A DNA stretch of 64,000 nucleotides from a virus, in the IMG/VR virus record IMGVR_UViG_3300033182_000709, positions 2,698 to 66,697 of that record. One strand, given 5' to 3'. Shown one piece after another: positions 10,840-20,770 of the stretch. How positions within the stretch are numbered: the first letter of the stretch is position 1; each line of letters starts with the position of its first letter. The notes under the pieces were generated by a model. It saw only the letters and a program-made list of their open reading frames with translations, was not told the origin of the DNA and did not search any database. A program made the translations under genes and the position numbers.

Positions 10840-10917
10840 TAAGTCTTTATACTGCAATGACTTAGAGTTACTTACCCCCCGCCGCGAAGACCTAAGTCTT
10901 TATCTGACAACGACTTA
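10840..10917. repeat. paired-palindrome element copy 1
   Basis: TAAGTCTTT-N7-AATGACTTA and TAAGTCTTT-N7-AACGACTTA starting at 10840 and 10893. Confidence 0.9.
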
Positions 10918-10957
10918 GAACTATTCTACTTTTTTTCTTTTTTATCCCCTAAAGTTC

Positions 10958-10985
10958 TTGACATGTGTTGCCGATAATGTATAAT
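10958..10985 (+). promoter_or_regulatory. sigma70-type promoter TTGACA-N16-TATAAT
   Basis: Perfect hexamers; equivalent promoters at 11361, 12105, 12803, 14038, 14786, 16528, 17354, 18132, 19266, 20542. Confidence 0.8.
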
Positions 10986-11023
10986 GAAGGCATAACGAAC
11001 AACACTTTTTTGGAGACTGTAAA

Positions 11024-11221
11024 ATGATGATGATCAGCGTTAACTTCACCGACAAAAATGGCGAATCTTGCTGGGCCGATTTCTCTTCTGCTCAAGCTGC
11101 GGTTGAATACTGCGGTATTGAGAATATCCTATCGTGGGAACACTACGACGAATACGAAGACGAATACGACGGCCAACCCGATTGGGCACAGGAATGGCAC
11201 GATTTTGACCCTGACTGCTAA
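11024..11221 (+). CDS. small acidic phage protein (DGQPDWAQEWHDFDPDC motif)
   Basis: GGAGA RBS after promoter; C-terminal motif recurrent in phage early proteins. Confidence 0.7.
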   Translation: MMMISVNFTDKNGESCWADFSSAQAAVEYCGIENILSWEHYDEYEDEYDGQPDWAQEWHDFDPDC

Positions 11222-11232
11222 TCAAATCGACC

Positions 11233-11310
11233 TAAGTCCTTACCCCACAAGGGGTTAGGGCGATGGGGGCCGGGGCCGCTGGCCCTAAGTCCTTATCTGA
11301 CAACGACTTA
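11233..11310. repeat. paired-palindrome element copy 2
   Basis: TAAGT starts at 11233 and 11286. Confidence 0.9.
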
Positions 11311-11370
11311 CGACGATTGCGAAATACTTTTCTTTTTTTCTTTTTTATCCCCTAAAGTTCTTGACATTGA

Positions 11371-11562
11371 ATGACGATAATGTATAATAGAAGCAACAAA
11401 GGAGATAAGAGAATGGTCAAGATTACTGTCAATGGAAAATGGATCGGATACATTGTCTCAACGGGGTTGACAACCTCAGAGGTAAACGCTAAAGTAAACC
11501 GTATAGTTAACCGTAACTTTCCACCCGGAACCGTTACCACTTCTAAATGGGAATTTGTTTAG
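11371..11562 (+). CDS. hypothetical early protein (start probably 11413)
   Basis: GGAG RBS downstream of promoter 11361. Confidence 0.5.
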   Translation: MTIMYNRSNKGDKRMVKITVNGKWIGYIVSTGLTTSEVNAKVNRIVNRNFPPGTVTTSKWEFV

Positions 11563-11858
11563 TACTAAATGAGGAATGCATGATGAATATCTGCCCTATT
11601 GAAAATGGCTATGCTATCAATGGCACAAGGATTGAAAAGGCTCCAGACTTTGTTCAATACACAAAAAACATATCACTTAGAGTTGGTGATGTTTATATTA
11701 GAAGAAAGGAAGGAGATGCGAAAAGGACGATCAAGGCGATGTATTATATTAATGGCATATTGAGTATAAAATATATAGAAGAGGGTTTAGGACAACTTAA
11801 CTTTACTGTTAATGGTAACTGCCTACCTGAAACCCTTAGAGCATGGGGAAGAACATAA
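11547..11858 (+). CDS. hypothetical protein
   Basis: ORF track; GAGG RBS near internal ATG. Confidence 0.55.
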   Translation: MGICLVLNEECMMNICPIENGYAINGTRIEKAPDFVQYTKNISLRVGDVYIRRKEGDAKRTIKAMYYINGILSIKYIEEGLGQLNFTVNGNCLPETLRAWGRT

Positions 11859-11974
11859 TGGAAGAAACTATTACACAAGCAATCTGGAATGGGTTTTGTA
11901 TTATTACTTTTGTTGGCACAATGTTTGGTGCTATTATGATTACTTTAGTTAACTGTTTTAGAAAAGGATGGTAA
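11858..11974 (+). CDS. small membrane protein (38 aa)
   Basis: Manual translation MEETITQAIWNGFCIITFVGTMFGAIMILLVNCFRKGW; TAATG overlap with upstream ORF. Confidence 0.5.
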   Translation: MEETITQAIWNGFCIITFVGTMFGAIMITLVNCFRKGW

Positions 11975-11976
11975 CG

Positions 11977-12054
11977 TAAGTCCTTATCCCCCAACGACTT
12001 AGGTCTACGGGGGGCCGGGGCCGCCGCCCTAAGTCCTTATGTAGCAACGACTTA
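11977..12054. repeat. paired-palindrome element copy 3
   Basis: TAAGT starts at 11977 and 12030. Confidence 0.9.
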
Positions 12055-12173
12055 CGACGATTCAGGATTTCTTTTCTTTTTTCTTTTATTTGGGGTGGAT
12101 TCTCTTGACATGTTCTGCCGATAATGTATACTAGAGGCATAAGACAGCACGTTACTTTTTAGGAGATTGCAAG

Positions 12174-12380
12174 ATGAACAGCTTCAACACTCAGAACCAA
12201 TGCGACGATTTCAGCAACGAGCCTACTCAAGAGCAGATCATTGAATTGATGCGAGAGGCGGCAGAGATCCAAGATGCCCAGCAAACTTTCTTTGATGACT
12301 TGTTTGAAGAAGGTCACACCGATGAGGCTCACGACGCTTGGAAGGATTCCAAAGTATTCGGCGGAATCTTTTTAGATTAG
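12174..12380 (+). CDS. small acidic hypothetical protein
   Basis: AGGAGA RBS after promoter 12105. Confidence 0.65.
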   Translation: MNSFNTQNQCDDFSNEPTQEQIIELMREAAEIQDAQQTFFDDLFEEGHTDEAHDAWKDSKVFGGIFLD

Positions 12381-12451
12381 GATTGACAAGCCTATGGTTC
12401 AGGGGCTATAATGGTCCCTGTTCTTTCACTTTCTCTTTTGAGGTTTTTATT

Positions 12452-12682
12452 ATGTTCAAGCTCACCCTGACCACTGTTGAATGCTGCTATGATGGTTATC
12501 ACAATGATACTACCATCGCTTTCGGTAAGTCGCCCAAGGAGTGTTGGGCTAAAATGCGTGGACCTAACTACGGTCAACGTATCAACCGTGGGGGTTGTCC
12601 CCTTGGTTATGGCGGTACGCCCGTTCTCTGCGGTGAGAAGCTGGAGAAGAATGGGAAGGTCATCAAAGAGATTTGGGATTGA
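12452..12682 (+). CDS. hypothetical protein
   Basis: MFKLTLTTVECC start with GAGG RBS; stop abuts repeat copy 4. Confidence 0.55.
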   Translation: MFKLTLTTVECCYDGYHNDTTIAFGKSPKECWAKMRGPNYGQRINRGGCPLGYGGTPVLCGEKLEKNGKVIKEIWD

Positions 12683-12684
12683 CG

Positions 12685-12762
12685 TAAGTCCTTGCCCCGT
12701 AACGACTTAGGGCGACGGGGGCCGGGGCCGCTGGCCCTAAGTCCTGATACCACAAGGGTTTA
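12685..12762. repeat. paired-palindrome element copy 4
   Basis: TAAGT starts at 12685 and 12738. Confidence 0.9.
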
Positions 12763-12858
12763 CGACGATTTGGATTATTTCTAAAAATCTTTTCAATATC
12801 TATTGACATTCATTCACGGTATGCTAAAATTGGGTATCAACAACACAAGGAGTTTGAG

Positions 12859-13173
12859 ATGCACGAAGAACTGAAGAGACTAGAAGATGCCGTTATTGAT
12901 TGCTTCATGGTCCCTAAAGAGTGGCTCCCTGAATCGTATCAAGGCAAGCGTTCCCACCGTTCTCTAAAATCAGTCGTCAAGGAAGCACAAAAACGTGGAG
13001 TACTTGAAACGGAACACAAAAAGCTGAAACGGACCAAGGTAGAAAAGATTGCCATTTATCGAGAAAATGTTGAAAATGGTGTGGAGATTGATTGGCAGAT
13101 AGACGATAATAAACTATATAAGAATCAAATGTGTTTCGCACAACTCATGGAGCTAGATTTAGATGAAGATTAG
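12859..13173 (+). CDS. hypothetical protein
   Basis: AGGAG RBS after promoter 12803. Confidence 0.65.
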   Translation: MHEELKRLEDAVIDCFMVPKEWLPESYQGKRSHRSLKSVVKEAQKRGVLETEHKKLKRTKVEKIAIYRENVENGVEIDWQIDDNKLYKNQMCFAQLMELDLDED

Positions 13174-13326
13174 TTTTTTCCTGTTTCATTTTGTTTTGTT
13201 TGTTATTTGCGTGTTGACTTTTTGTTCGGGATGCAGTAACATTAAGAGTAAGCGAGTTGAGGTTATGACTGGCTCTCCAAATGTTTGGACCGCTAACCCT
13301 TCTCAATCCGTTAATGTCAAGGTGGT

Positions 13327-13590
13327 GTGCGAACTATGACAACTAAAATCAGAATGATGCGAAAATTAACCGACAAAGTTTCACCAACTGTGATCTGTGA
13401 ATCATTGCTTGAGTATGAACTACCAAAAGAATTTCAAGAGATGATGGTTGAATGTGACCAAATGATGATGGATGAAGATCCTGAAGCCGAGCTTTATATT
13501 CAGCACATTTTCTCGCAAGTGAATGAACATGTCAATGAATTGTTCGCTGACAGTGGCTTTTTTCCCATAGGATTAGTTGGTCATGAATGA
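13327..13590 (+). CDS. hypothetical acidic protein
   Basis: ORF track, co-oriented with neighbours. Confidence 0.55.
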   Translation: MRTMTTKIRMMRKLTDKVSPTVICESLLEYELPKEFQEMMVECDQMMMDEDPEAELYIQHIFSQVNEHVNELFADSGFFPIGLVGHE

Positions 13591-13897
13591 ACATTGGAAG
13601 CCATCAAAAGAGTTTACTTCAATGGCACAAAAACGACGTTTTGAACAACAGCAAAAAGACTTGGAGAAAATCAGAATGAATAAGCAACTAGCAAAGACCG
13701 AATCACAACAGGCACTTGAAAGATTGGAAATCGTTGAGGGTATCATGGAACAAGTGGAGCAACTAGCAGACCAACCCTTGTCGTGGTATGAAATGAGTCA
13801 ACTCGGTCAGGCTCATGAGCACCTACAAAATATTGCTAAAAAATTAAGTTTTGATTATCATCTTGAGGCAATGAAGGTTGATCCCGACTGTCAATAA
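13577..13897 (+). CDS. hypothetical coiled-coil protein
   Basis: ORF track; stop precedes repeat copy 5. Confidence 0.55.
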   Translation: MVMNEHWKPSKEFTSMAQKRRFEQQQKDLEKIRMNKQLAKTESQQALERLEIVEGIMEQVEQLADQPLSWYEMSQLGQAHEHLQNIAKKLSFDYHLEAMKVDPDCQ

Positions 13898-13908
13898 TCG
13901 AATCGTCC

Positions 13909-13986
13909 TAAGTCCTTACCCCGCAAGGGGTTAGGGCGAGGGGGGCCGGGGGCCGTCGCCCTAAGTCCTTACGCTACAACGACTTA
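13909..13986. repeat. paired-palindrome element copy 5
   Basis: TAAGT starts at 13909 and 13962. Confidence 0.9.
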
Positions 13987-14106
13987 CGACAATCCCAAGT
14001 ATTTTTATTTTTCTGATAAATAACTCAAGAGAAAGGCTTGACATTCCGATAAATAGTAGTAGAATAAGAGCATACAACACAACGCTACTTTTTAGGAGAA
14101 TGTAAG

Positions 14107-14673
14107 ATGGCTACCGTAACTTTCAAAGAATTTGATTTTATCAAGAAAAACATGGAATTTTCCAAACAAGCAGAGAAAGGATACTCAGTTAAGAAAGATC
14201 GAGTAGCATGGAATCTTGTCACAGCAGGAAATAACTGTGGTGATTTTGTGGAAGAAATCGTAGCCCAGAAGTTTCGAGATATGGGATATAAAGCAGAAAC
14301 TACTGTTGGCAAGCATCCTTATGATATAGACCTTACCGATAATGATGGAAATAAATTAACTGTTGAAGTAAAATCTGCCCAATATATCCCGTCGCAGGAA
14401 AAATTTAAGTTTGCACACATTAAACCAAGTCAAGCTGATATTTTTGTATTCTGTGCAATTACAGCCACAGGTTTAGAAATTCGATTTGCAACTAAGGCAG
14501 AGGTAATTCGATATATCAAACAAAGAGGTTTACGCAATCAAGGAAACGGATGGAATCTGACTTGGATGTCTTCAGGTAATTCTAGAGAAGACTTGCGGAT
14601 TCAGTGGCCTACCGAAGATCTTGACACCTTCCCACCTGCGTGGGCTATGAAGCTATCTAGATTTATGAATTAA
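14107..14673 (+). CDS. PD-(D/E)xK restriction-endonuclease-fold protein
   Basis: GDFVEEIVAQKF...HPYDIDL...VEVKSA catalytic pattern; sole gene of its cassette. Confidence 0.65.
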   Translation: MATVTFKEFDFIKKNMEFSKQAEKGYSVKKDRVAWNLVTAGNNCGDFVEEIVAQKFRDMGYKAETTVGKHPYDIDLTDNDGNKLTVEVKSAQYIPSQEKFKFAHIKPSQADIFVFCAITATGLEIRFATKAEVIRYIKQRGLRNQGNGWNLTWMSSGNSREDLRIQWPTEDLDTFPPAWAMKLSRFMN

Positions 14674-14675
14674 TG

Positions 14676-14753
14676 TAACTCCTTACGCCCCAACGACTTA
14701 GGTCTGCGGGGCCGGGGGCGGCTCGCCCTAAGTCCTTACACCACAACAACTTA
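14676..14753. repeat. paired-palindrome element copy 6
   Basis: TAACT at 14676 and TAAGT at 14729. Confidence 0.9.
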
Positions 14754-14819
14754 CGTCAATTTGGATTTTCTTTAAAGTTTGTTGCTTGACAATGCCGATA
14801 ACTATAGTAGAATGATACT

Positions 14820-14897
14820 TGGGTGGGCAGCACTTACAGGCCGATGCCCACATGTGACAAATCCGAAACCTGCGGGACAGTGAGAGGCTGTCTTTTC
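14820..14897 (+). ncRNA. putative small structured RNA
   Basis: Follows promoter 14786-14813; GTGGGCA/TGCCCAC stem; GACAG/CTGTC hairpin plus TTTT; no RBS-led ORF. Confidence 0.35.
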
Positions 14898-15027
14898 TAT
14901 TCTAGCTTCTTTAGATTATTACTAAATAGCACGCGAGCACGCGAGTTTTTTCTAAAGTTTTACTTGACAATTAGCCGATAAATGTTATACTGGAAGAGTA
15001 AACAACACTACTTTTAGGAGAAGCGAA

Positions 15028-15273
15028 ATGAGAGTTATGGAAAAGAATGGAAAACCGCTTGAGGTTAAAGAGCACATTATGACCAAGAACTTTTGGGAAT
15101 TCTTTTTACTGGAGGAACCAGACGAGAATGGAGTGGCATTTGCCTTAGTGTGTGGAGATTATGACGAATTGGGTTATGTATCCTTGGACGAGATTAAACC
15201 ATTCATTATTTCTAGAACAAAACAAATGGATGGAATTATGCCCGCTCCCGGTTATTCTTGGCTTGACAATTAG
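15028..15273 (+). CDS. DUF2958-like protein
   Basis: WEFFLLE...AFALVCG..DELGYVSLDEI pattern; own promoter at about 14964. Confidence 0.55.
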   Translation: MRVMEKNGKPLEVKEHIMTKNFWEFFLLEEPDENGVAFALVCGDYDELGYVSLDEIKPFIISRTKQMDGIMPAPGYSWLDN

Positions 15274-15324
15274 GATTTGTATAGTACAATAGAAGCACAA
15301 CATTACTTTTTTAGGAGAATGGAA

Positions 15325-15648
15325 ATGAGTAAGATTGAGGAAGCTATTGAAGATGTTATCAATGGGCATATTAGTGAATTGGACTTTCATGATATGATTA
15401 CCACTGAGGTTCGTGATACTTGGGACATGGATGAACTGGATCGTGTAGATGAGACAGTTGATAGAGTGGATGCTCTTGAGGCATGGATAGTTGATGCAGA
15501 GGATAAACTGAGTATTCAAAATGTTATTAACTTGGAAAGTTCAGTTAAGAATCTTACTAAGTATACCCAGCAACTAGAACTTCGTATTACAGAACTTGAG
15601 CAACAAGCAAACAAGTCCTTTATTGAGAAACTTATGTTTTGGAGGTAG
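15325..15648 (+). CDS. hypothetical coiled-coil protein
   Basis: AGGAGA RBS; ends FIEKLMFWR. Confidence 0.6.
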   Translation: MSKIEEAIEDVINGHISELDFHDMITTEVRDTWDMDELDRVDETVDRVDALEAWIVDAEDKLSIQNVINLESSVKNLTKYTQQLELRITELEQQANKSFIEKLMFWR

Positions 15649-15874
15649 TGATGAGATACACAAATATGGTAGGAAATCCAGTTGACGGATTCAAATGTTA
15701 TGGTATCTTTGATAATCTACAGGATGCTATTGACTGGCAGGATGGATGTGACGAGTCTTGTTGGGTTGTAGAATTGGAGGTTGAAGATGACAATTAAAGA
15801 ATTGATAAAAGAATTTGTTGATGACCACAAAGCACACTTTGACTGTTATCCAATGGAAGTTGAAGTAAACGATA

Positions 15875-16087
15875 TTGTTTATTCTTGGGATCAGTATTGG
15901 GAGATTTTGGACAATGAGTAAACCTGAATACACACCAGAGAATTGCGAAACATTAGCTAATACTGTTGTAGATAGTATGTCATGGGATGAACTTAGACAA
16001 TTTGTTTATGATGATGTTTATTCTATTATGATGGAAGAAAAAGATGTTTTCCTTGCTAACGTAGAACATTATTGGGAGGGAGATTGA
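15875..16087 (+). CDS. hypothetical protein (start probably MSKPEY)
   Basis: ORF track. Confidence 0.5.
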   Translation: MFILGISIGRFWTMSKPEYTPENCETLANTVVDSMSWDELRQFVYDDVYSIMMEEKDVFLANVEHYWEGD

Positions 16088-16088
16088 A

Positions 16089-16367
16089 ATGAAGAAGAAG
16101 TATAGACTTTTTAGTGATCCCGGTCACGCTTGGCTTGAGGTTGACTTTAACGAACTGGTTAGTTTAGGAATAAATAAAAAGATTACTGCTTGGTCCTACC
16201 ATAAGGGTAACAATGTGTATCTGGAAGAGGATTGTGATGCTCCTTTATTTTTACAAACTAAAAAAGATCTTACAGGTGAGGTAACACAGTATGAAGAGAT
16301 TACAAGCGATTACAATTCTCCAATACGAAACTACAGTCCATATTATTTTGGGACTATGTATGATTAG
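16089..16367 (+). CDS. conserved phage hypothetical protein (DPGHAWLEV...YLEEDCDA)
   Basis: Motif recurrent in phage early regions. Confidence 0.6.
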   Translation: MKKKYRLFSDPGHAWLEVDFNELVSLGINKKITAWSYHKGNNVYLEEDCDAPLFLQTKKDLTGEVTQYEEITSDYNSPIRNYSPYYFGTMYD

Positions 16368-16407
16368 TTGATTCTCCTTGTTGTGTGTTGTGTGTTGTGT
16401 GTGGCCC

Positions 16408-16485
16408 TAAGTCCTTACCCCGCAAGGGGTTAGGGCGGCGGGCCGGGGGGCGGATCGACCTAAGTCCTTACGACACAAGGATTTA
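16408..16485. repeat. paired-palindrome element copy 7
   Basis: TAAGT starts at 16408 and 16461. Confidence 0.9.
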
Positions 16486-16563
16486 CGACTATTTGGGTTT
16501 TTTCTGGTTTTGACTGGAGAAAATCCCTTGACAATGACGATAAGTATTGTATAATGGTAGCAC

Positions 16564-16671
16564 AGGAGAGGATGGTTTTCCTACTGTGGACGCTCGATCA
16601 GAAGCGTAGTCCCAGAGCGGGGATGGGCGTGATGATCCCACGGTATTCTGGTTCGATCCCAGTTTTTCCTA
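16564..16671 (+). ncRNA. tRNA-like structured RNA (108 nt)
   Basis: AGGAGAG/TTTTCCT acceptor-like stem, CTGG-TTCGATC-CCAG T-arm, two internal hairpins; directly after promoter 16528. Confidence 0.35.
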
Positions 16672-16715
16672 CTTTTTTCACTTTTGTTTAGTACTTTAAA
16701 AGGAAAGAAAATGTT

Positions 16716-17006
16716 ATGCGATCTTATACAACTGATGACGGATTTACTGTCCGTGTGTTTAGCACTATGTATCTTGATTGGGGTCTCGAAATTTTGGCAC
16801 CTAGTGGGGAATCTTTGTATTATAATCCCCATTGTATCGCTTCTGATTGTGTAGGATTCTATTGGGAAGATGATGAAGGAGAACCATTAGAGGAAGGTAT
16901 TGATTGGAGCGATGAAGATTGGCAGGAGTATCTTGAATGTGAAGCAGATTCACTAATTGAGTGCTTTGTTGCCGAAGATGATTTTGGAGAAGCATTAAAT
17001 GAATAA
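16716..17006 (+). CDS. acidic hypothetical protein
   Basis: ORF track, AAGGA RBS. Confidence 0.55.
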   Translation: MRSYTTDDGFTVRVFSTMYLDWGLEILAPSGESLYYNPHCIASDCVGFYWEDDEGEPLEEGIDWSDEDWQEYLECEADSLIECFVAEDDFGEALNE

Positions 17007-17223
17007 TGAGATTGAAACCGTATCTATTTGGTGTGACGCACCTGATAGTTATGATGAGATGGTAGGCCAAGAACCATATTTCAGTTGGTTTTGTTGTGAC
17101 TCTTGTAATGAGCGTTTAGGTGGTAGTCGATATGACGTTGTGGGTTTCAACCCCGGCGATGATCCTGACGACTACCTTGAGTTGTCAGTTTGTGTTGATT
17201 GTTATTGTGAGTTAGTTGGTTAG
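16999..17223 (+). CDS. small Cys-rich protein (CCDSC...CVDC)
   Basis: Two CxxC pairs. Confidence 0.6.
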   Translation: MNNEIETVSIWCDAPDSYDEMVGQEPYFSWFCCDSCNERLGGSRYDVVGFNPGDDPDDYLELSVCVDCYCELVG

Positions 17224-17233
17224 TTAATCGCCC

Positions 17234-17311
17234 TAAGTCCTTACCCCGCAAGGGGTTAGGGCTACGGGCCGGGGGGCGGCTCGCCCTAAGTCCTTATACT
17301 GCAACAACTTA
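17234..17311. repeat. paired-palindrome element copy 8
   Basis: TAAGT starts at 17234 and 17287. Confidence 0.9.
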
Positions 17312-17400
17312 CGGCTATTTGCTTTTTTTCTTATTTTGAGTGAAGATTGCCCCTTGACTTTGACGATAACTATTGTATAATGGAAGCAAAGGAGAACGCT

Positions 17401-17748
17401 ATGCTTAAAATCGTTACTAACAATGTGCCTAGAGATGTTTTGAGTGGGTATGAAATGGACCCGCAGATTCTGAGAGATGAATTTGATATTGAAGTCGAAG
17501 GTATGAATGATGACCAGATTGGTGATCTTTGCTCAATGCAGTTTGTAAAGTTTCGGGGTGTTTGGTATGATGTTAGTGACTTTATCACAACGTCACCCGG
17601 ACCTTGGAATCATGGATTGCCTGAAGAATTTAGACAGTGGGATGGGTATGCTTCCGATAGTTTCTTTTCTGGCACCCTCTTGAAATATGCAAGAGACGAT
17701 GATAGAATGGACTTTGACCGAGTGGTTATGGCAACTTATTACAGTTAA
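17401..17748 (+). CDS. conserved phage hypothetical protein (WDGYASDSFFSG)
   Basis: AGGAG RBS after promoter 17354. Confidence 0.6.
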   Translation: MLKIVTNNVPRDVLSGYEMDPQILRDEFDIEVEGMNDDQIGDLCSMQFVKFRGVWYDVSDFITTSPGPWNHGLPEEFRQWDGYASDSFFSGTLLKYARDDDRMDFDRVVMATYYS

Positions 17749-17759
17749 GGAGAAATCGC

Positions 17760-17984
17760 ATGAATGGTTGGAGAAATCGTGAAACGTGGTTAATTAATCT
17801 TTGGTTTGGAGATCATTGGACAGAAGAAGGAGATGTCCAAACGACCAGAGATTACATTGAAGAAATGATAGACGAGCAAAGAGAAAAGATGCCTGATTGG
17901 ATGGTTGATATTTTGGGCGTAAATTTTGTGATGGAAGAAATCGACTGGGATGAATTAGGGGGACATATAGAAGCTATGCCGTAA
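17760..17984 (+). CDS. conserved phage hypothetical protein (MNGWRNRETWLINLW)
   Basis: AGGAG RBS; recurrent phage N-terminal motif. Confidence 0.6.
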   Translation: MNGWRNRETWLINLWFGDHWTEEGDVQTTRDYIEEMIDEQREKMPDWMVDILGVNFVMEEIDWDELGGHIEAMP

Positions 17985-18000
17985 GTGGTGCTGATTGCCC

Positions 18001-18078
18001 TAAGTCCTTACCCCGCAAGGGGTTAGGGCGACGGGGGCCGGGGCCGCTGGCCCTAAGTCCTTACGCCACAACGATTTA
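18001..18078. repeat. paired-palindrome element copy 9
   Basis: TAAGT starts at 18001 and 18054. Confidence 0.9.
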
Positions 18079-18201
18079 CGACGATTTAGAAATACTTTGG
18101 GAATATTCCCGTTTTGTTCTCATGTTTCTCCTTGACAATGACGATAACTATAGTATAATCAAAGGAGTAAGACATGAGTGAGTTTTTTACCTTAGCAGGG
18201 T

Positions 18202-18402
18202 GTGTCACCCTCATCTTTATTTGGAGTTTATGGAATGAAGCTGCTAGGAATTGGGTCTGATTTGGGAACGGGAAAAGTTACGGCAATCCTGAAAAATAAG
18301 GTTGAGATTTCTTATCAGGATGGTACAATAGAGTTTGTAAGTTTCAAGGAAGCAGAACGAAGGTTGTACTTCGATAACCTGCAAGGTTGGAAAAGCGTTT
18401 AA
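18202..18402 (+). CDS. small hypothetical protein
   Basis: ORF track; start uncertain. Confidence 0.4.
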   Translation: MSPSSLFGVYGMKLLGIGSDLGTGKVTAILKNKVEISYQDGTIEFVSFKEAERRLYFDNLQGWKSV

Positions 18403-18422
18403 GTTTCTTTCTTTTTTAGGAG

Positions 18423-18716
18423 TTGTTTGCTATGCAAAAGCGAACCAGTTACGAGTTTGAGGGCAAGTGCGGTTATAGTTACGTCACCAAGGCGTATTCC
18501 TCCAACGATGTGAAGTTTGAGGTTCATTTTCGAGCGAATGAGAATGACACCGATACCGTCCAGTTTGGAGTGGATGCCTCTACTGCTCGCAACATCTTGC
18601 GGTCTTTGACTCGCGCAGTTATCGAATCCGATCCTGAATTGGGTATTGACGCTCTCCGATGCATTGTCGATGAGCATAAGGAAAAGTTGGAACAATCTTC
18701 CGATTGTGAAGAATAA
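18423..18716 (+). CDS. hypothetical protein
   Basis: AGGAG RBS. Confidence 0.6.
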   Translation: MFAMQKRTSYEFEGKCGYSYVTKAYSSNDVKFEVHFRANENDTDTVQFGVDASTARNILRSLTRAVIESDPELGIDALRCIVDEHKEKLEQSSDCEE

Positions 18717-18793
18717 TCCTTGACTTCTGTTTGTTGTGTGCTACAATGGGGTAAAGGCAACAAGGTGTTGCCGCCCCTTCTTTCTCTCTCTTT

Positions 18794-19048
18794 ATGAGGT
18801 ATTTTGTTATGGCTAATGTTAAAAACTTTCGTGACCTTCGTTCCACTCGCTACATCAATGTTGGAGAGGTCGTTTCCGTCAATTATCCCAAACATGGCAA
18901 GCGTAACGTCTTGACCAAGCACTCTGGTGAAGTGGTTGCTACTGGAACTGGTCCCGGTGGTCGATACATTACAATCAAGGGTGAAGGCGGGATTATTCGC
19001 TCGCTATCCGAGGCCAAGATGGTAAAGCTCCGCAAACACCTTGCATGA
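18794..19048 (+). CDS. small basic beta-rich protein
   Basis: GAGG RBS; own promoter at about 18720; followed by terminator. Confidence 0.55.
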   Translation: MRYFVMANVKNFRDLRSTRYINVGEVVSVNYPKHGKRNVLTKHSGEVVATGTGPGGRYITIKGEGGIIRSLSEAKMVKLRKHLA

Positions 19049-19088
19049 TTTTACTGCTCTTTGTTTTATTTATATTTCTTACGTTTTA

Positions 19089-19114
19089 CGGGGTCGCCTA
19101 GCGGCCCCTTTTTT
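19089..19114 (+). terminator. Rho-independent terminator
   Basis: GGGGTCGC-CTA-GCGGCCCC followed by a T run. Confidence 0.75.
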
Positions 19115-19136
19115 ATTAGCATAAGAGAAATCGACG

Positions 19137-19214
19137 TAAACCCTTACCAGTAAACGACTTAGGACGACGGGGGGCCGGGGCCGCTGCCCTAAGTCCTTAT
19201 ATAGCAACAACTTA
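19137..19214. repeat. paired-palindrome element copy 10
   Basis: TAAAC at 19137 and TAAGT at 19190. Confidence 0.9.
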
Positions 19215-19343
19215 CGACGATTTACTTTTTCTAGAAAATAATTCTATTCTGCTAAAGAAAAACGCTTGACATAGACGATAAATATAGTAGAATTAAGGCA
19301 TAACCAAGTCTGTTACTTTTTTCTTTTTTGAAAGGTGAGCAAT

Positions 19344-20312
19344 ATGTCTCATGAAATCGAGTCTGTAAACGGTCGTGCTTCTATGGTTTTCGCTGGGGAA
19401 ACCCCTTGGCATGGTTTGGGTCATCGTCTTGAGGGCAACGAGTCCGCAAACGAGATCCGCGAATTGGCGGGTCTAGATTGGAATGTTGAGGTTGAACCGT
19501 TGTATCGTAAGATCGATGGGGAGTTCGTTGAGTTCCCATTGGCAAACGCCAGCGTCCGCGATATGGATAACTCAAATCTAGGTTGCGTCGGTCCACGTTG
19601 GACACCGTATCAAAACGAATCGATGTTTGAGTGCTTCCGGCCTATGGTCGAAAATGGTCTAATGAAGTGGCATACTGCCGGATCGCTTCGCAATGGTCAA
19701 CGTGTTTGGTGCTTGTGCGAATTGAATCTTGATAATTCGGAAATCACTCCGGGCGACGAAATTCGCAAGTTCGCTATGCTTTCCAACGGTCACGATGGCA
19801 AGCTTGCGGTTCACTTTGGTTTCACTCCGATTCGCGTTGTGTGTGCAAACACTGAAGCAATGGCAAGGGGTTCCAAAGCGTCAAAACTGATTCGCGTGCG
19901 TCACTCGCGTATGGTCGAGCAGAATGTTGAGCGGTTGCGTGACATCATGAATGTCGCCAATCAAGAGTTTGAAGCAACGTGCGATCAATATCGTTTCCTC
20001 GCTTCGCGTGACATCAACAAAGCGGATCTTGAGAAATATATCAAGGTTGTCTTTGACCTTCAGACCAAGAAAGACGATGACATCTCTACCCGTCAGAAAA
20101 ATATCAACTCTCGCATTGTCGAGTTGTTTGAGACTGGTCGCGGTTCTGATGTTGCCGGTTCGACTTGGTGGGGTGCTTACAATGCTATGACCGAATACGC
20201 GAATTGGGAAAAGGGACGAAACGAAGAAAACCGCATGGACTCTGTGTGGTTTGGGCAAAATGCCACGTTTGTCTCAAAGTCGCTAGATGCCGCTCTTGCG
20301 TTGTCTGCCTAA
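19344..20312 (+). CDS. DUF932 / TIGR03299-like phage-plasmid protein
   Basis: ETPWHGLG, GLDWNVE, TAGSLRNGQRVW, NGHDG...FTPIRVVCANT, TWWGAYNAMTEY. Confidence 0.85.
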   Translation: MSHEIESVNGRASMVFAGETPWHGLGHRLEGNESANEIRELAGLDWNVEVEPLYRKIDGEFVEFPLANASVRDMDNSNLGCVGPRWTPYQNESMFECFRPMVENGLMKWHTAGSLRNGQRVWCLCELNLDNSEITPGDEIRKFAMLSNGHDGKLAVHFGFTPIRVVCANTEAMARGSKASKLIRVRHSRMVEQNVERLRDIMNVANQEFEATCDQYRFLASRDINKADLEKYIKVVFDLQTKKDDDISTRQKNINSRIVELFETGRGSDVAGSTWWGAYNAMTEYANWEKGRNEENRMDSVWFGQNATFVSKSLDAALALSA

Positions 20313-20329
20313 CTTATCACTAACCTTTG

Positions 20330-20354
20330 CGGGGGACTTCGGTCCCCTTTTTTT
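20330..20354 (+). terminator. Rho-independent terminator
   Basis: GGGGGAC-TTCG-GTCCCC followed by a T run. Confidence 0.8.
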
Positions 20355-20375
20355 ATGCCGTGACACAAATCGTCG

Positions 20376-20453
20376 TAAGTCCTTATGTAGCAACAACTTA
20401 GGGCGACGGGGGCGGGGGCGGCTCACCCTAAGTCCTTATGTAGCAACGACTTA
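20376..20453. repeat. paired-palindrome element copy 11, with solo palindromes at 20503 and 20578
   Basis: TAAGT starts at 20376 and 20429. Confidence 0.9.
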
Positions 20454-20770
20454 CGTCAAATTCCTAAATTAAGTACTAAACAGGAAGTATTTAGAATAGC
20501 TGTAAGTCTAATAATAGTAAGGGTTTATGTCAAGTTATGTATTGACTATGCCGATGTATATACTATAATAGGTGATGTAAGTCCTTATGTGGTAAGGGTT
20601 TAGGTTAAATTACTCTTTTTTAAAACGGAGGTTCTATGATTCTAGGCTTGATGGTAATCTTTATAATCTTAGTAACTTACGGTGGTGTGTAAACTTAGGT
20701 AAGCTGGGCAGCTTTGGCTGTCTGGCTTTTTTTGTATCATCTATTCTAGATTCTTACCGTTCTTATAGTG

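Follow-up and report, generated by a model that had tools for sequence, protein, structure and literature searches.

Paired near-palindromes at fixed spacing upstream of phage early promoters as candidate docking sites for a DNA-bending protein

RESULTS

Eleven paired-palindrome modules in a block of small ORFan genes

The window, a 64-kb stretch of phage DNA taken from an 81-kb contig, contains a 10-kb block of small ORFan genes in which a paired-palindrome module recurs eleven times. Each module consists of two 25-bp near-palindromes, A and B, joined by a 28-bp GC-rich linker. A sequence-only reading of this DNA had described eleven such pairs at invariant 53-bp spacing, a linker of fixed length and variable sequence, and two solo palindromes at +74 and +75 bp, and all of these were recovered. 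The distance from the start of A to the start of B is exactly 53 bp in 11/11 pairs, and the linker measures 28 bp in every module while its sequence varies; pairwise module alignments revealed compensating +1/-1 indels in its G/C runs. The solo palindromes start at 20503 and 20578, 74 and 75 bp on. When the consensus given by that reading was searched on both strands with up to 3 mismatches, 43 matches were found, compared with 0.06 expected from shuffled sequence. All of them fell within the block, and the whole-genome motif search that had been suggested detected no further copies in the rest of the 81-kb contig. The modules and solo sites are as follows.

Module 1, 10840..10917, + strand: sites A (10840-10864) and B (10893-10917), atypical C-rich linker
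Module 2, 11233..11310, + strand: A site is a AAGGGGTTA variant
Module 3, 11977..12054, + strand: from the motif search
Module 4, 12685..12762, + strand: B site (12738) degenerate, with TG where the others have TT
Module 5, 13909..13986, + strand: from the motif search
Module 6, 14676..14753, + strand: from the motif search
Module 7, 16408..16485, + strand: from the motif search
Module 8, 17234..17311, + strand: from the motif search
Module 9, 18001..18078, + strand: from the motif search
Module 10, 19137..19214, + strand: canonical intrinsic terminator closely 5' at 19090-19108
Module 11, 20376..20453, + strand: canonical intrinsic terminator closely 5' at 20331-20348
Solo half-degenerate palindrome, 20503..20527, + strand: lacks the left TT, 15 bp 5' of the -35 of the last promoter
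Solo palindrome, 20578..20602, + strand: closely 3' of the -10 of the last promoter

Among the right half-sites of the window modules, 20/22 contain CAANNNNTTA; the left ones give TAANNNNTTA when the opposite strand is read. Three sites are listed as degenerate, namely module 4 B, solo 20503, and module 1 with its C-rich linker. The palindromes are longer than 25 bp, each extending to ~37 bp (TnGnCs ... sGnCnA), and the linker centre forms another, GGCCGGCC-like palindrome. Module 1 sits in a divergent region with no + strand gene upstream.

Modules precede sigma-70-type promoters at helically phased distances

Downstream of every module come an AT-rich stretch and a TTGACA-16/17-TATAAT promoter, so that a near-consensus sigma-70 promoter lies 3' of each of the 11 window modules. 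Below, the score is the number of matches out of 12, and the distance runs from the start of B to the start of the -35.

Promoter after module 1, 10958..10985, + strand: sigma-70-type, 12/12, distance 65 bp
Promoter after module 2, 11361..11388, + strand: 12/12, distance 75 bp
Promoter after module 3, 12105..12132, + strand: 11/12, distance 75 bp
Promoter after module 4, 12803..12830, + strand: 11/12, with TG, distance 65 bp
Promoter after module 5, 14038..14065, + strand: 11/12, distance 76 bp
Promoter after module 6, 14786..14813, + strand: 11/12, distance 57 bp
Promoter after module 7, 16528..16555, + strand: 12/12, distance 67 bp
Promoter after module 8, 17354..17381, + strand: 11/12, distance 67 bp
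Promoter after module 9, 18132..18159, + strand: 12/12, distance 78 bp
Promoter after module 10, 19266..19293, + strand: 11/12, distance 76 bp
Promoter after module 11, 20542..20569, + strand: 11/12, distance 113 bp, solo site on either side

The distance from B to the -35 is quantised, with a Rayleigh maximum at 10.5 bp (R = 0.64; n = 125 distinct spacers), a test whose p-value overstates independence because the modules are related to one another. Throughout the family, modules lie 5' of promoters and almost never 3' of them, and their orientation is uniform in 45/47 loci. No promoter scoring >=10/12 lies near ~30% of strict pairs, and three strong promoter-like sites in the block of the window lack a module. 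None of the RNA runs searched covers this region. An operator-like position, as seen for the solo palindrome at 20578..20602, is rare in the family.

The element and its spacing are conserved in one phage family

The same element was found on more than 100 related phage contigs, and a family sample of ~480 modules was assembled from 102 related IMG/VR loci. The sequence-only reading had named loss of the spacing in relatives as evidence that would speak against it; the spacing is conserved. Of 485 family modules, 414 have a spacing of 53 bp, 56 of 52 bp, and 9 of 51 bp, and the value is uniform within a genome (for example, 7/7 modules at 52 bp in L115 and 7/7 at 51 bp in L096). The invariant bases, YAA-N4-TT-N7-AA-N4-TTR, are T/A only. 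GTCC/GGAC within the N4 stretches, the flanking TnGnCs/sGnCnA, and the GGCCGGCC linker centre are conserved as well. Between the window and its relatives, DNA-level similarity in the early block is limited to the modules and the DUF932 gene, a pattern indicative of strong purifying selection acting on the modules.

Occurrence of the element is limited to a single phage family. Searches of cultured phages returned no match to 4 kb (megablast), to one module with its promoter (blastn), or to the 706-aa neighbouring protein; TerL (tblastn) gave only 23 to 25% identity, to Bacillus and other phages. Thus, these nucleotide and protein searches, which may hide near-identical records, revealed no apparent cultured relative. 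With a best TerL match of 23% identity, to Bacillus siphoviruses, the phage is not T4-like. A literature search with motif strings and for IHF-palindrome early-promoter repeats found no description of the element.

Palindromes resemble two mirrored IHF cores

In 435 profile-defined family modules, TT at palindrome positions 8-9 and AA at positions 17-18 are near-invariant, and both are kept in 20/22 palindromes of the window's paired modules. These steps lie 9 bp apart, as do the two central ApA (TpT) steps of IHF sites, in which a TTR element follows 4 bp beyond CAA (PMC1874591; bioRxiv 10.1101/382655). Positions 23-25 read TTA, with G in ~10% of modules, and positions 1-3 are the mirror image; TTR thus stands 4 bp 3' of the CAA element, which is present in 20/22 right half-sites of the window. 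The W, A, and T positions of the IHF consensus are mostly unmatched there: in a strict-core scan, 39/48 window half-sites matched 0 or 1 of the 4 extra WATC positions of the E. coli-type consensus. This WATC part is largely missing from the window's own lineage, which does not carry the full 13-bp consensus. Some lineages have complete 13-bp consensus sites, and WATCAA is fully matched in L017, L070, and L056; one L017 palindrome has a perfect consensus in both halves, and AATCAACGACTTA recurs in L070. Half-sites with 3 or 4 of the 4 extra positions are over-represented (244 versus 170 expected). The likeness of the half-sites to IHF sites, noted in the sequence-only reading, thus extends to the kink and TTR geometry of the invariant positions and, in some lineages, to the full consensus. 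The palindromes look like IHF/HU-type docking sites composed of two mirrored IHF cores.

Search for the binder and the host

No PF00216 (HU/IHF) gene was detected in the window contig or in five complete relatives, so the binder would come from the host or represent a protein family not yet recognised. Pfam and PHROG searches classified the early ORFs as ORFans, with named matches only to DUF932, DUF7249, and, weakly, NOV_C; no DNA-binding domain was found in the 21 small early ORFs scanned or in the 188-aa ORF of the block. A 64% match to the GMP-reductase gene was found in a Flavobacteriales MAG in which a module-bearing contig is present as well. This match is probably a binning artefact and was discounted as evidence of the host. 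A Bacteroidota host is argued against by strong Shine-Dalgarno sites and the TTGACA/TATAAT promoters. A DUF1501 atlas search was uninformative on the host.

Palindrome stems lack covariation and are distinct from terminators

Some features would suit RNA hairpins that terminate, process, or stabilise transcripts, DNA cruciforms, or G-quadruplexes. In the window genome, a perfect CCCC-GCAA-GGGG hairpin is found in five A sites, the same five modules account for every G-quadruplex motif of the 64-kb window (five in all), and some modules fold better than shuffled controls. Covariation was sought in hairpins A and B, the linker, and the outer stem, and none was found. In the window hairpins, 0/18 pairs were changed on both sides, with covariation not above that of shuffles; compensatory changes that would keep pairing, as in Rfam or attC-like structures, numbered 0. 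Across 477 family modules, the observed Watson-Crick fraction equalled that expected under independence, mutual information at variable stem positions was <=0.1, and A-C was as common as G-C at pair 19/37. Mismatches are conserved, for instance C-C at stem position 7/19.

A conserved RNA structure was rejected, the predicted folds of the 11 modules being inconsistent between copies (z, -0.8 to -3.5), and so was a G-quadruplex as a family feature, its motif occurring in only 4/157 family modules. Rfam matched only tRNAs at the gathering threshold in the whole window, with no match to a module. The terminator scan listed canonical terminators at 19090, 20331, and 20701 and none of the palindromes, whose stems are not followed by the U-tract of an intrinsic (Rho-independent) terminator. 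The modules are not the predicted terminators, because module 1 has no upstream + strand gene, and hence no upstream transcript on its own strand, and modules 10 and 11 have terminators of their own. The absence of covariation and of U-tracts and the presence of separate terminators likewise speak against a terminator or attenuator stem-loop of the kind found in T4-type PeSLs. Judged by these sequence comparisons, the modules are not RNA or DNA hairpins.

DISCUSSION

We propose that the modules are paired sites for a dimeric DNA-bending protein, probably of the host IHF/HU family, which would form a phased architecture at early promoters, and that they may also be PeSL-like recombination linkers; we give this reading a probability of about 0.6. 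Each 25-bp near-palindrome (~37 bp when extended) would be a dyad-symmetric site for a dimeric minor-groove bender of the IHF/HU kind, most likely host-encoded. The DNA would be kinked at two flexible TT/AA steps, separated by 9 bp and each accompanied, 4 bp further out, by a TTR element. The stiff GC-rich linker would hold the two sites 53 bp apart, about five helical turns. At 45, 55, 66, 76, or 87 bp, the pair is in helical phase with the AT-rich UP-like stretch and the strong sigma-70 promoter of the unit, which has an extended -10. In the mechanism we infer, sharp bends at the two sites, being in phase, would turn the upstream DNA back onto RNA polymerase and so boost or insulate each early transcription unit. 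The modules would probably double as linkers for homologous recombination, like the PeSLs of T4, because each small ORFan cassette is bordered by ~150 bp of nearly identical sequence. Paired bender sites on one helical face had been predicted before, and the absence of covariation, the IHF geometry, the spacing, and the phasing are consistent with them; among the roles then suggested, promoter activation or architecture appears best supported.

Several observations fit this proposal less well. The WATC part of the IHF consensus, in its E. coli-type form, is largely absent in the window's lineage, and GTCC/GGAC, TnGnCs/sGnCnA, and the GGCCGGCC centre are not obviously explained by IHF. Natural sites of heterodimeric IHF are asymmetric, whereas the module palindromes are dyad-symmetric. 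Between lineages with spacings of 51, 52, or 53 bp, twist varies by as much as ~70 degrees, so a protein-protein bridge or a lineage-specific binder fits better than pure helical phasing. The failure to find an HU/IHF gene in the contig and five complete relatives, the strict pairs without a promoter, and the promoter-like sites without a module also count against it.

A bolder form of the bender proposal, speculative and in our estimate doubtful, applies to a large family of uncultured marine phages whose genomes measure 150 to 230 kb. Here a homodimeric HU/IHF-family host protein or an unrecognised phage bender, sitting on paired dyad-symmetric U-turn sites, would close a ~53-bp micro-loop before every early promoter. 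The loop would activate the promoter, shield adjacent strong transcription units topologically from one another, and provide portable linkers for exchanging ORFan cassettes, and would constitute an undescribed class of phage cis-element.

Like IHF sites, the module palindromes combine ApA/TpT steps 9 bp apart with a CAA element and TTR 4 bp beyond it (PMC1874591); they differ in being dyad-symmetric with a core in both halves, in being paired at a fixed 51 to 53 bp around a GC-rich linker, and, in the window lineage, in largely lacking the WAT part and having no A-tract while conserving extra G/C positions. According to titles cited in PMC3820752, the phage Mu early promoter, Pe, is under positive control by IHF. 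The modules are similarly placed tens of base pairs 5' of a sigma-70 promoter with an AT-rich upstream region, and a host architectural protein serving phage early transcription, as at Pe, is a candidate here. Unlike the IHF site at Pe, the module is repeated at every early promoter, at least 11 times per genome.

Phage SPO1 encodes TF1, a homodimeric HU-type protein with site preference that binds near early promoters. Its footprint of ~37 bp is similar to the extended module palindrome, and it needs hmU-containing DNA. The module-bearing phages differ from SPO1 in that no PF00216 gene was found in the six records searched and hmU-containing DNA is not indicated.

Alternatively, and in our view rather unlikely, the palindromes might be operators of a phage-encoded dimeric regulator or a host regulator other than IHF/HU, acting as a cooperative tetramer across the 53-bp gap, which could shut off or time all early promoters. 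Such a protein would fit with the G/C conservation outside the IHF elements (at GTCC, at TnGnCs in the flanks, and at the GGCCGGCC centre), with limitation of the element to one phage family, and with a lineage-specific, genome-uniform spacing, expected if sites co-evolve with a lineage-specific protein. Moreover, solo sites stand on both sides of the last promoter, and one of them overlaps the start of transcription, as an operator would. However, every invariant position is A/T and the geometry is that of IHF/HU, whereas helix-turn-helix operators usually show G/C-specific major-groove contacts ~10 bp apart. Sites 45 to 140 bp 5' of the -35, almost never over the promoter, are poorly positioned for a repressor, the early ORFs scanned lack a DNA-binding domain, and some lineages have the full IHF consensus.

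It is improbable that the modules serve chiefly as recombination linkers or represent selfish repeats under concerted evolution, akin to T4 PeSLs or MITEs, with a palindromic form that is incidental or serves a recombinase. The modules flank ORFan cassettes with a median length of 1.1 kb, and several rearranged HSP pairs overlap at modules. Similarity between related loci ends within 25 bp of a module in 18% of cases versus 7% for random positions, a 2.5-fold enrichment that is modest and partly expected for any intergenic site and that hints weakly at a recombination role. PeSLs, like the modules, are repeated intergenic cassettes in an ORFan-rich early block, with a strong sigma-70-like promoter, an AT-rich upstream region, and a G-run/C-run element, GGGG...CCCC in PeSLs, joined to early promoters (PMC2839356, PMC4122927); PeSLs are likely substrates for modular shuffling, as the modules may be. 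In PeSLs the stem-loop works as a terminator and has no fixed position relative to the promoter, whereas module spacing is fixed and helically phased, and the conserved part of the module is a pair of A/T-invariant palindromes without covariation. Recombination as the main function would leave unexplained why particular positions stay invariant across genomes with no other similarity at the DNA level, as well as the indel-compensated fixed spacing and the 10.5-bp promoter phasing. Transposition is opposed by uniform orientation and confinement to a single block. E. coli BIME/REP clusters and Neisseria Correia elements are likewise intergenic mosaics of GC-rich palindromes and an IHF site, and Correia elements also carry promoters, while BIMEs also bind gyrase (PMC3184786). 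The modules differ from both in being phage-borne, promoter-phased, and uniformly oriented in one block, not dispersed or transposed. The arrangement of BIMEs is the inverse of that of the module, in which IHF-like sites flank a GC-rich centre.

That the palindromes act as RNA hairpins, cruciforms, or G-quadruplexes is highly improbable, this reading being largely refuted because covariation is absent.

If the paired-bender reading is correct, every early promoter across a whole family of large uncultured marine phages is wired to one shared two-site docking element for a DNA-bending protein, with precise spacing and helical phasing. This would be an unusually clean natural case of architectural transcription control, with hundreds of sequence variants and built-in natural spacing experiments in the form of 51-, 52-, and 53-bp pairs and 10.5-bp promoter steps. 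The module may serve as a compact, portable upstream element for synthetic promoters and as a sequence tag for the early, host-takeover region in metagenomic contigs of the family. It would also represent a second, independent PeSL-like cassette organisation outside the T4-like phages.

An early-block motif of the window

The window belongs to an 81-kb IMG/VR viral contig of about 37% GC with an estimated completeness of roughly one-half, and the phage was found repeatedly in metagenomes from marine water, from sediment, and from fish-associated material. From 10.8 to 20.7 kb, the window carries a block of small + strand ORFs, the early block, bordered on either side by minus-strand genes, which on the left include those for the terminase large subunit and an epimerase. 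The genes separating the modules are ORFans; the exceptions are a DUF932 protein and a handful of DUF matches. Canonical intrinsic terminators lie at the following positions:

19090-19108, just before module 10
20331-20348, just before module 11
20701-20728, closing the + strand early block; minus-strand genes begin near 20.8 kb

Searching with the palindrome consensus, allowing up to three mismatches, returned 43 strand-matches versus 0.06 expected, which establishes the motif proposed by the sequence-only reading as real. All of them fall in the early block and none elsewhere in the 81-kb contig. The 11 start pairs (sites A and B of each module) at exactly 53 bp were confirmed, as were the solo palindromes at +74 and +75 after the last pair.

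The 64-kb window has only five canonical G-quadruplex motifs, all within modules and each beginning with GGGGTTAGGG:

11251, + strand, module 2
13927, + strand, module 5
16426, + strand, module 7
17252, + strand, module 8
18019, + strand, module 9

The A sites of modules 5, 7, 8, and 9 hold a CCCC-GCAA-GGGG hairpin, of which module 2 has the version CCCC-ACAA-GGGG. The G-quadruplex motif is not a family feature, being present in 4/157 modules elsewhere among the matches listed. A GT-rich simple stretch (GTGTGTTGTGTG...) occupies 16383-16407, directly ahead of module 7, and separates the A site of that module from the stop codon of the ORF before it.

Conservation in a family of uncultured phages

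With a 16-base pattern, at least 119 loci were retrieved from IMG/VR, and a profile derived from the 11 copies in the window gave 645 matches in 102 of these loci, among the matches listed. In five complete relatives (153-229 kb), the sites are again gathered in one block of 15-25 kb each. When the early block of the window was compared with these relatives, the sole DNA-level similarity consisted of the modules, in some cases along with their promoter, and of the DUF932 gene; thus, conservation is stronger in the modules than in the coding sequence around them. A cultured relative was not found, TerL identity to Bacillus and other phages being at most 23-25%. A 2.1-Mb MAG labelled uncultured Flavobacteriales (L128/G006, contigs C20 and C55) includes contigs of the phage family, with a module pair at 53 bp and a GMP-reductase homologue that is 64% identical. 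These contigs probably reflect a binning artefact or hint weakly at the host, and the Shine-Dalgarno sites and promoter type argue against a Bacteroidota host.

Among the matches listed, A-B start spacing in 485 full modules was 53 bp in 414, 52 bp in 56, and 51 bp in 9, and an independent strict pattern yielded 196, 31, and 4 pairs at these respective spacings. Spacing is uniform within a genome: locus L115 has 7/7 at 52 bp and locus L096 has 7/7 at 51 bp, and in most remaining loci among the matches listed every pair is at 53 bp. The L096 linker differs from the others in being T-rich on one side. Linkers average 72% GC versus 42% for the loci (among the matches listed), and those of the window show cancelling +1/-1 indels in G/C runs, by which 28 bp are kept.

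Helical phasing with early promoters

Downstream of each window module come a T-rich stretch and, after it, a predicted promoter of the TTGACA-16-TATAAT class scoring 11-12 of 12, the distances from the site B start to the -35 start being 57, 65, 65, 67, 67, 75, 75, 76, 76, 78, and 113 bp. Among the matches listed, 163/233 strict family pairs have a promoter of at least 10/12 no more than 160 bp away and on one side only, module orientation is uniform in 45/47 loci, and the sites precede promoters, almost never following them. B-to-(-35) distances in the family are quantised at about 45, 55, 66, 76, and 87 bp, and the Rayleigh statistic is highest at a 10.5-bp period (R = 0.64, n = 125 distinct spacers; both among the matches listed), with a p-value that relatedness among the modules inflates. 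Many lineages contribute to the five separate distance peaks, among the matches listed. The family data thereby bear out the earlier proposal that element-to-promoter distances change in steps of one helical turn.

The consensus of module-associated promoters comprises a AAATTTTT-like upstream tract, CTTGACA, a spacer motif CCGATA(A), and an extended -10 TGTATAAT. The spacer motif, which resembles the H-NS high-affinity motif TCGATAAATT, appears between -35 and -10 in promoters such as:

16528-16555
18132-18159

Strong sigma-70-like matches (11-12 of 12) with no module upstream are also present in the early block:

12383-12412
14964-14991
15263-15290

Palindrome halves resembling IHF sites

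A canonical IHF site has WATCAA near its centre, TTR four bp 3' of it, sometimes an A-tract, and two base steps, usually AA, at a separation of nine bp, at which prolines intercalate (PMC1874591); one of these kinks, 9 bp apart, is inside the consensus (bioRxiv 10.1101/382655). In the module palindrome, nine bp separate a TT step (8|9) and an AA step (17|18), and outward from each step the sequence reads (C/T)AA-N4-TTA, so that the palindrome corresponds to a mirrored pair of IHF cores with a common centre. All invariant palindrome bases fall within IHF elements. The palindrome at 1937-1961 of family locus L017 matches WATCAANNNNTTR at 13 of 13 positions in both halves, the central base being common to both, and locus L070 carries AATCAACGACTTA repeatedly (for example, 851-875). 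In some divergent family members, one or both halves are a perfect 13-bp IHF consensus. Half-sites that match 3-4 of the additional IHF positions W, A, T, and C are over-represented in the family, at 244 versus 170 expected, among the matches listed. The window lineage retains the kink steps, CAA (20/22 right halves), and TTR, but without WAT, its half-sites mostly having 0-1 of the extra IHF positions.

Given its dyad symmetry, the palindrome would more readily suit a homodimeric protein of the HU/IHF family than the classical heterodimer. A PF00216 (HU/IHF family) gene was detected neither in the contig of the window nor in the five complete relatives; hence, the candidate binder would come from the host or, if phage-encoded, belong to an unrecognised protein family. 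The main rival to an IHF-like binder is a dimeric regulator, phage-encoded or otherwise non-IHF, and this reading is favoured by additional conserved G/C positions, by spacing specific to the lineage, and by an operator-like solo site overlying the start of the last promoter. The G/C positions are the more weakly conserved GTCC/GGAC inside the palindrome and TnGnCs and sGnCnA outside it; with the outer ones included, each palindrome measures about 37 bp, and the remaining 16-bp core has a GGCCGGCC centre.

Conserved positions rather than base pairing

Structural readings of the modules, as RNA or DNA, are largely excluded by lack of covariation, inconsistent folds, absence of a U-tract, separate terminators, and no Rfam match. 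Compensatory changes affect 0/18 stem pairs in the window, where covariation is not above shuffled controls. In 477 distinct family modules, among the matches listed, the Watson-Crick fraction at each variable stem position does not exceed the independent-column expectation, mutual information there is at most 0.1 bit, and at one stem pair A-C equals G-C in frequency. Predicted RNA folds vary among module copies, a U-tract follows none of the palindromes, and a search of Rfam gave no match to the modules. A separate canonical terminator precedes module 10, and another module 11, each by a few tens of bp, and module 1 has no + strand gene upstream. Conservation resides in T-A-A (positions 1-3), T-T (8-9), A-A (17-18), and T-T-A (23-25), with 1.4-2.0 bits each; it is a set of positions and not base pairing.

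Proposed role of the modules

The best-supported reading of these sequence patterns is that the module is a paired, in-phase candidate site for a dimeric DNA-bending protein, as the sequence-only reading had proposed. The overall cassette layout is similar to that of the promoter-early stem-loops (PeSLs) of phage T4 (PMC2839356). It is plausible that the modules secondarily serve evolution as recombination linkers. Of the similarity breakpoints between related loci, 18% lie no more than 25 bp from a module, versus 7% for random positions (among the matches listed), a modest enrichment that is partly expected at any intergenic site. At each early promoter, the paired bound sites would create a fixed upstream architecture, for which IHF-stimulated early promoters of phages, Mu Pe among them (titles cited in PMC3820752), would be the analogue.
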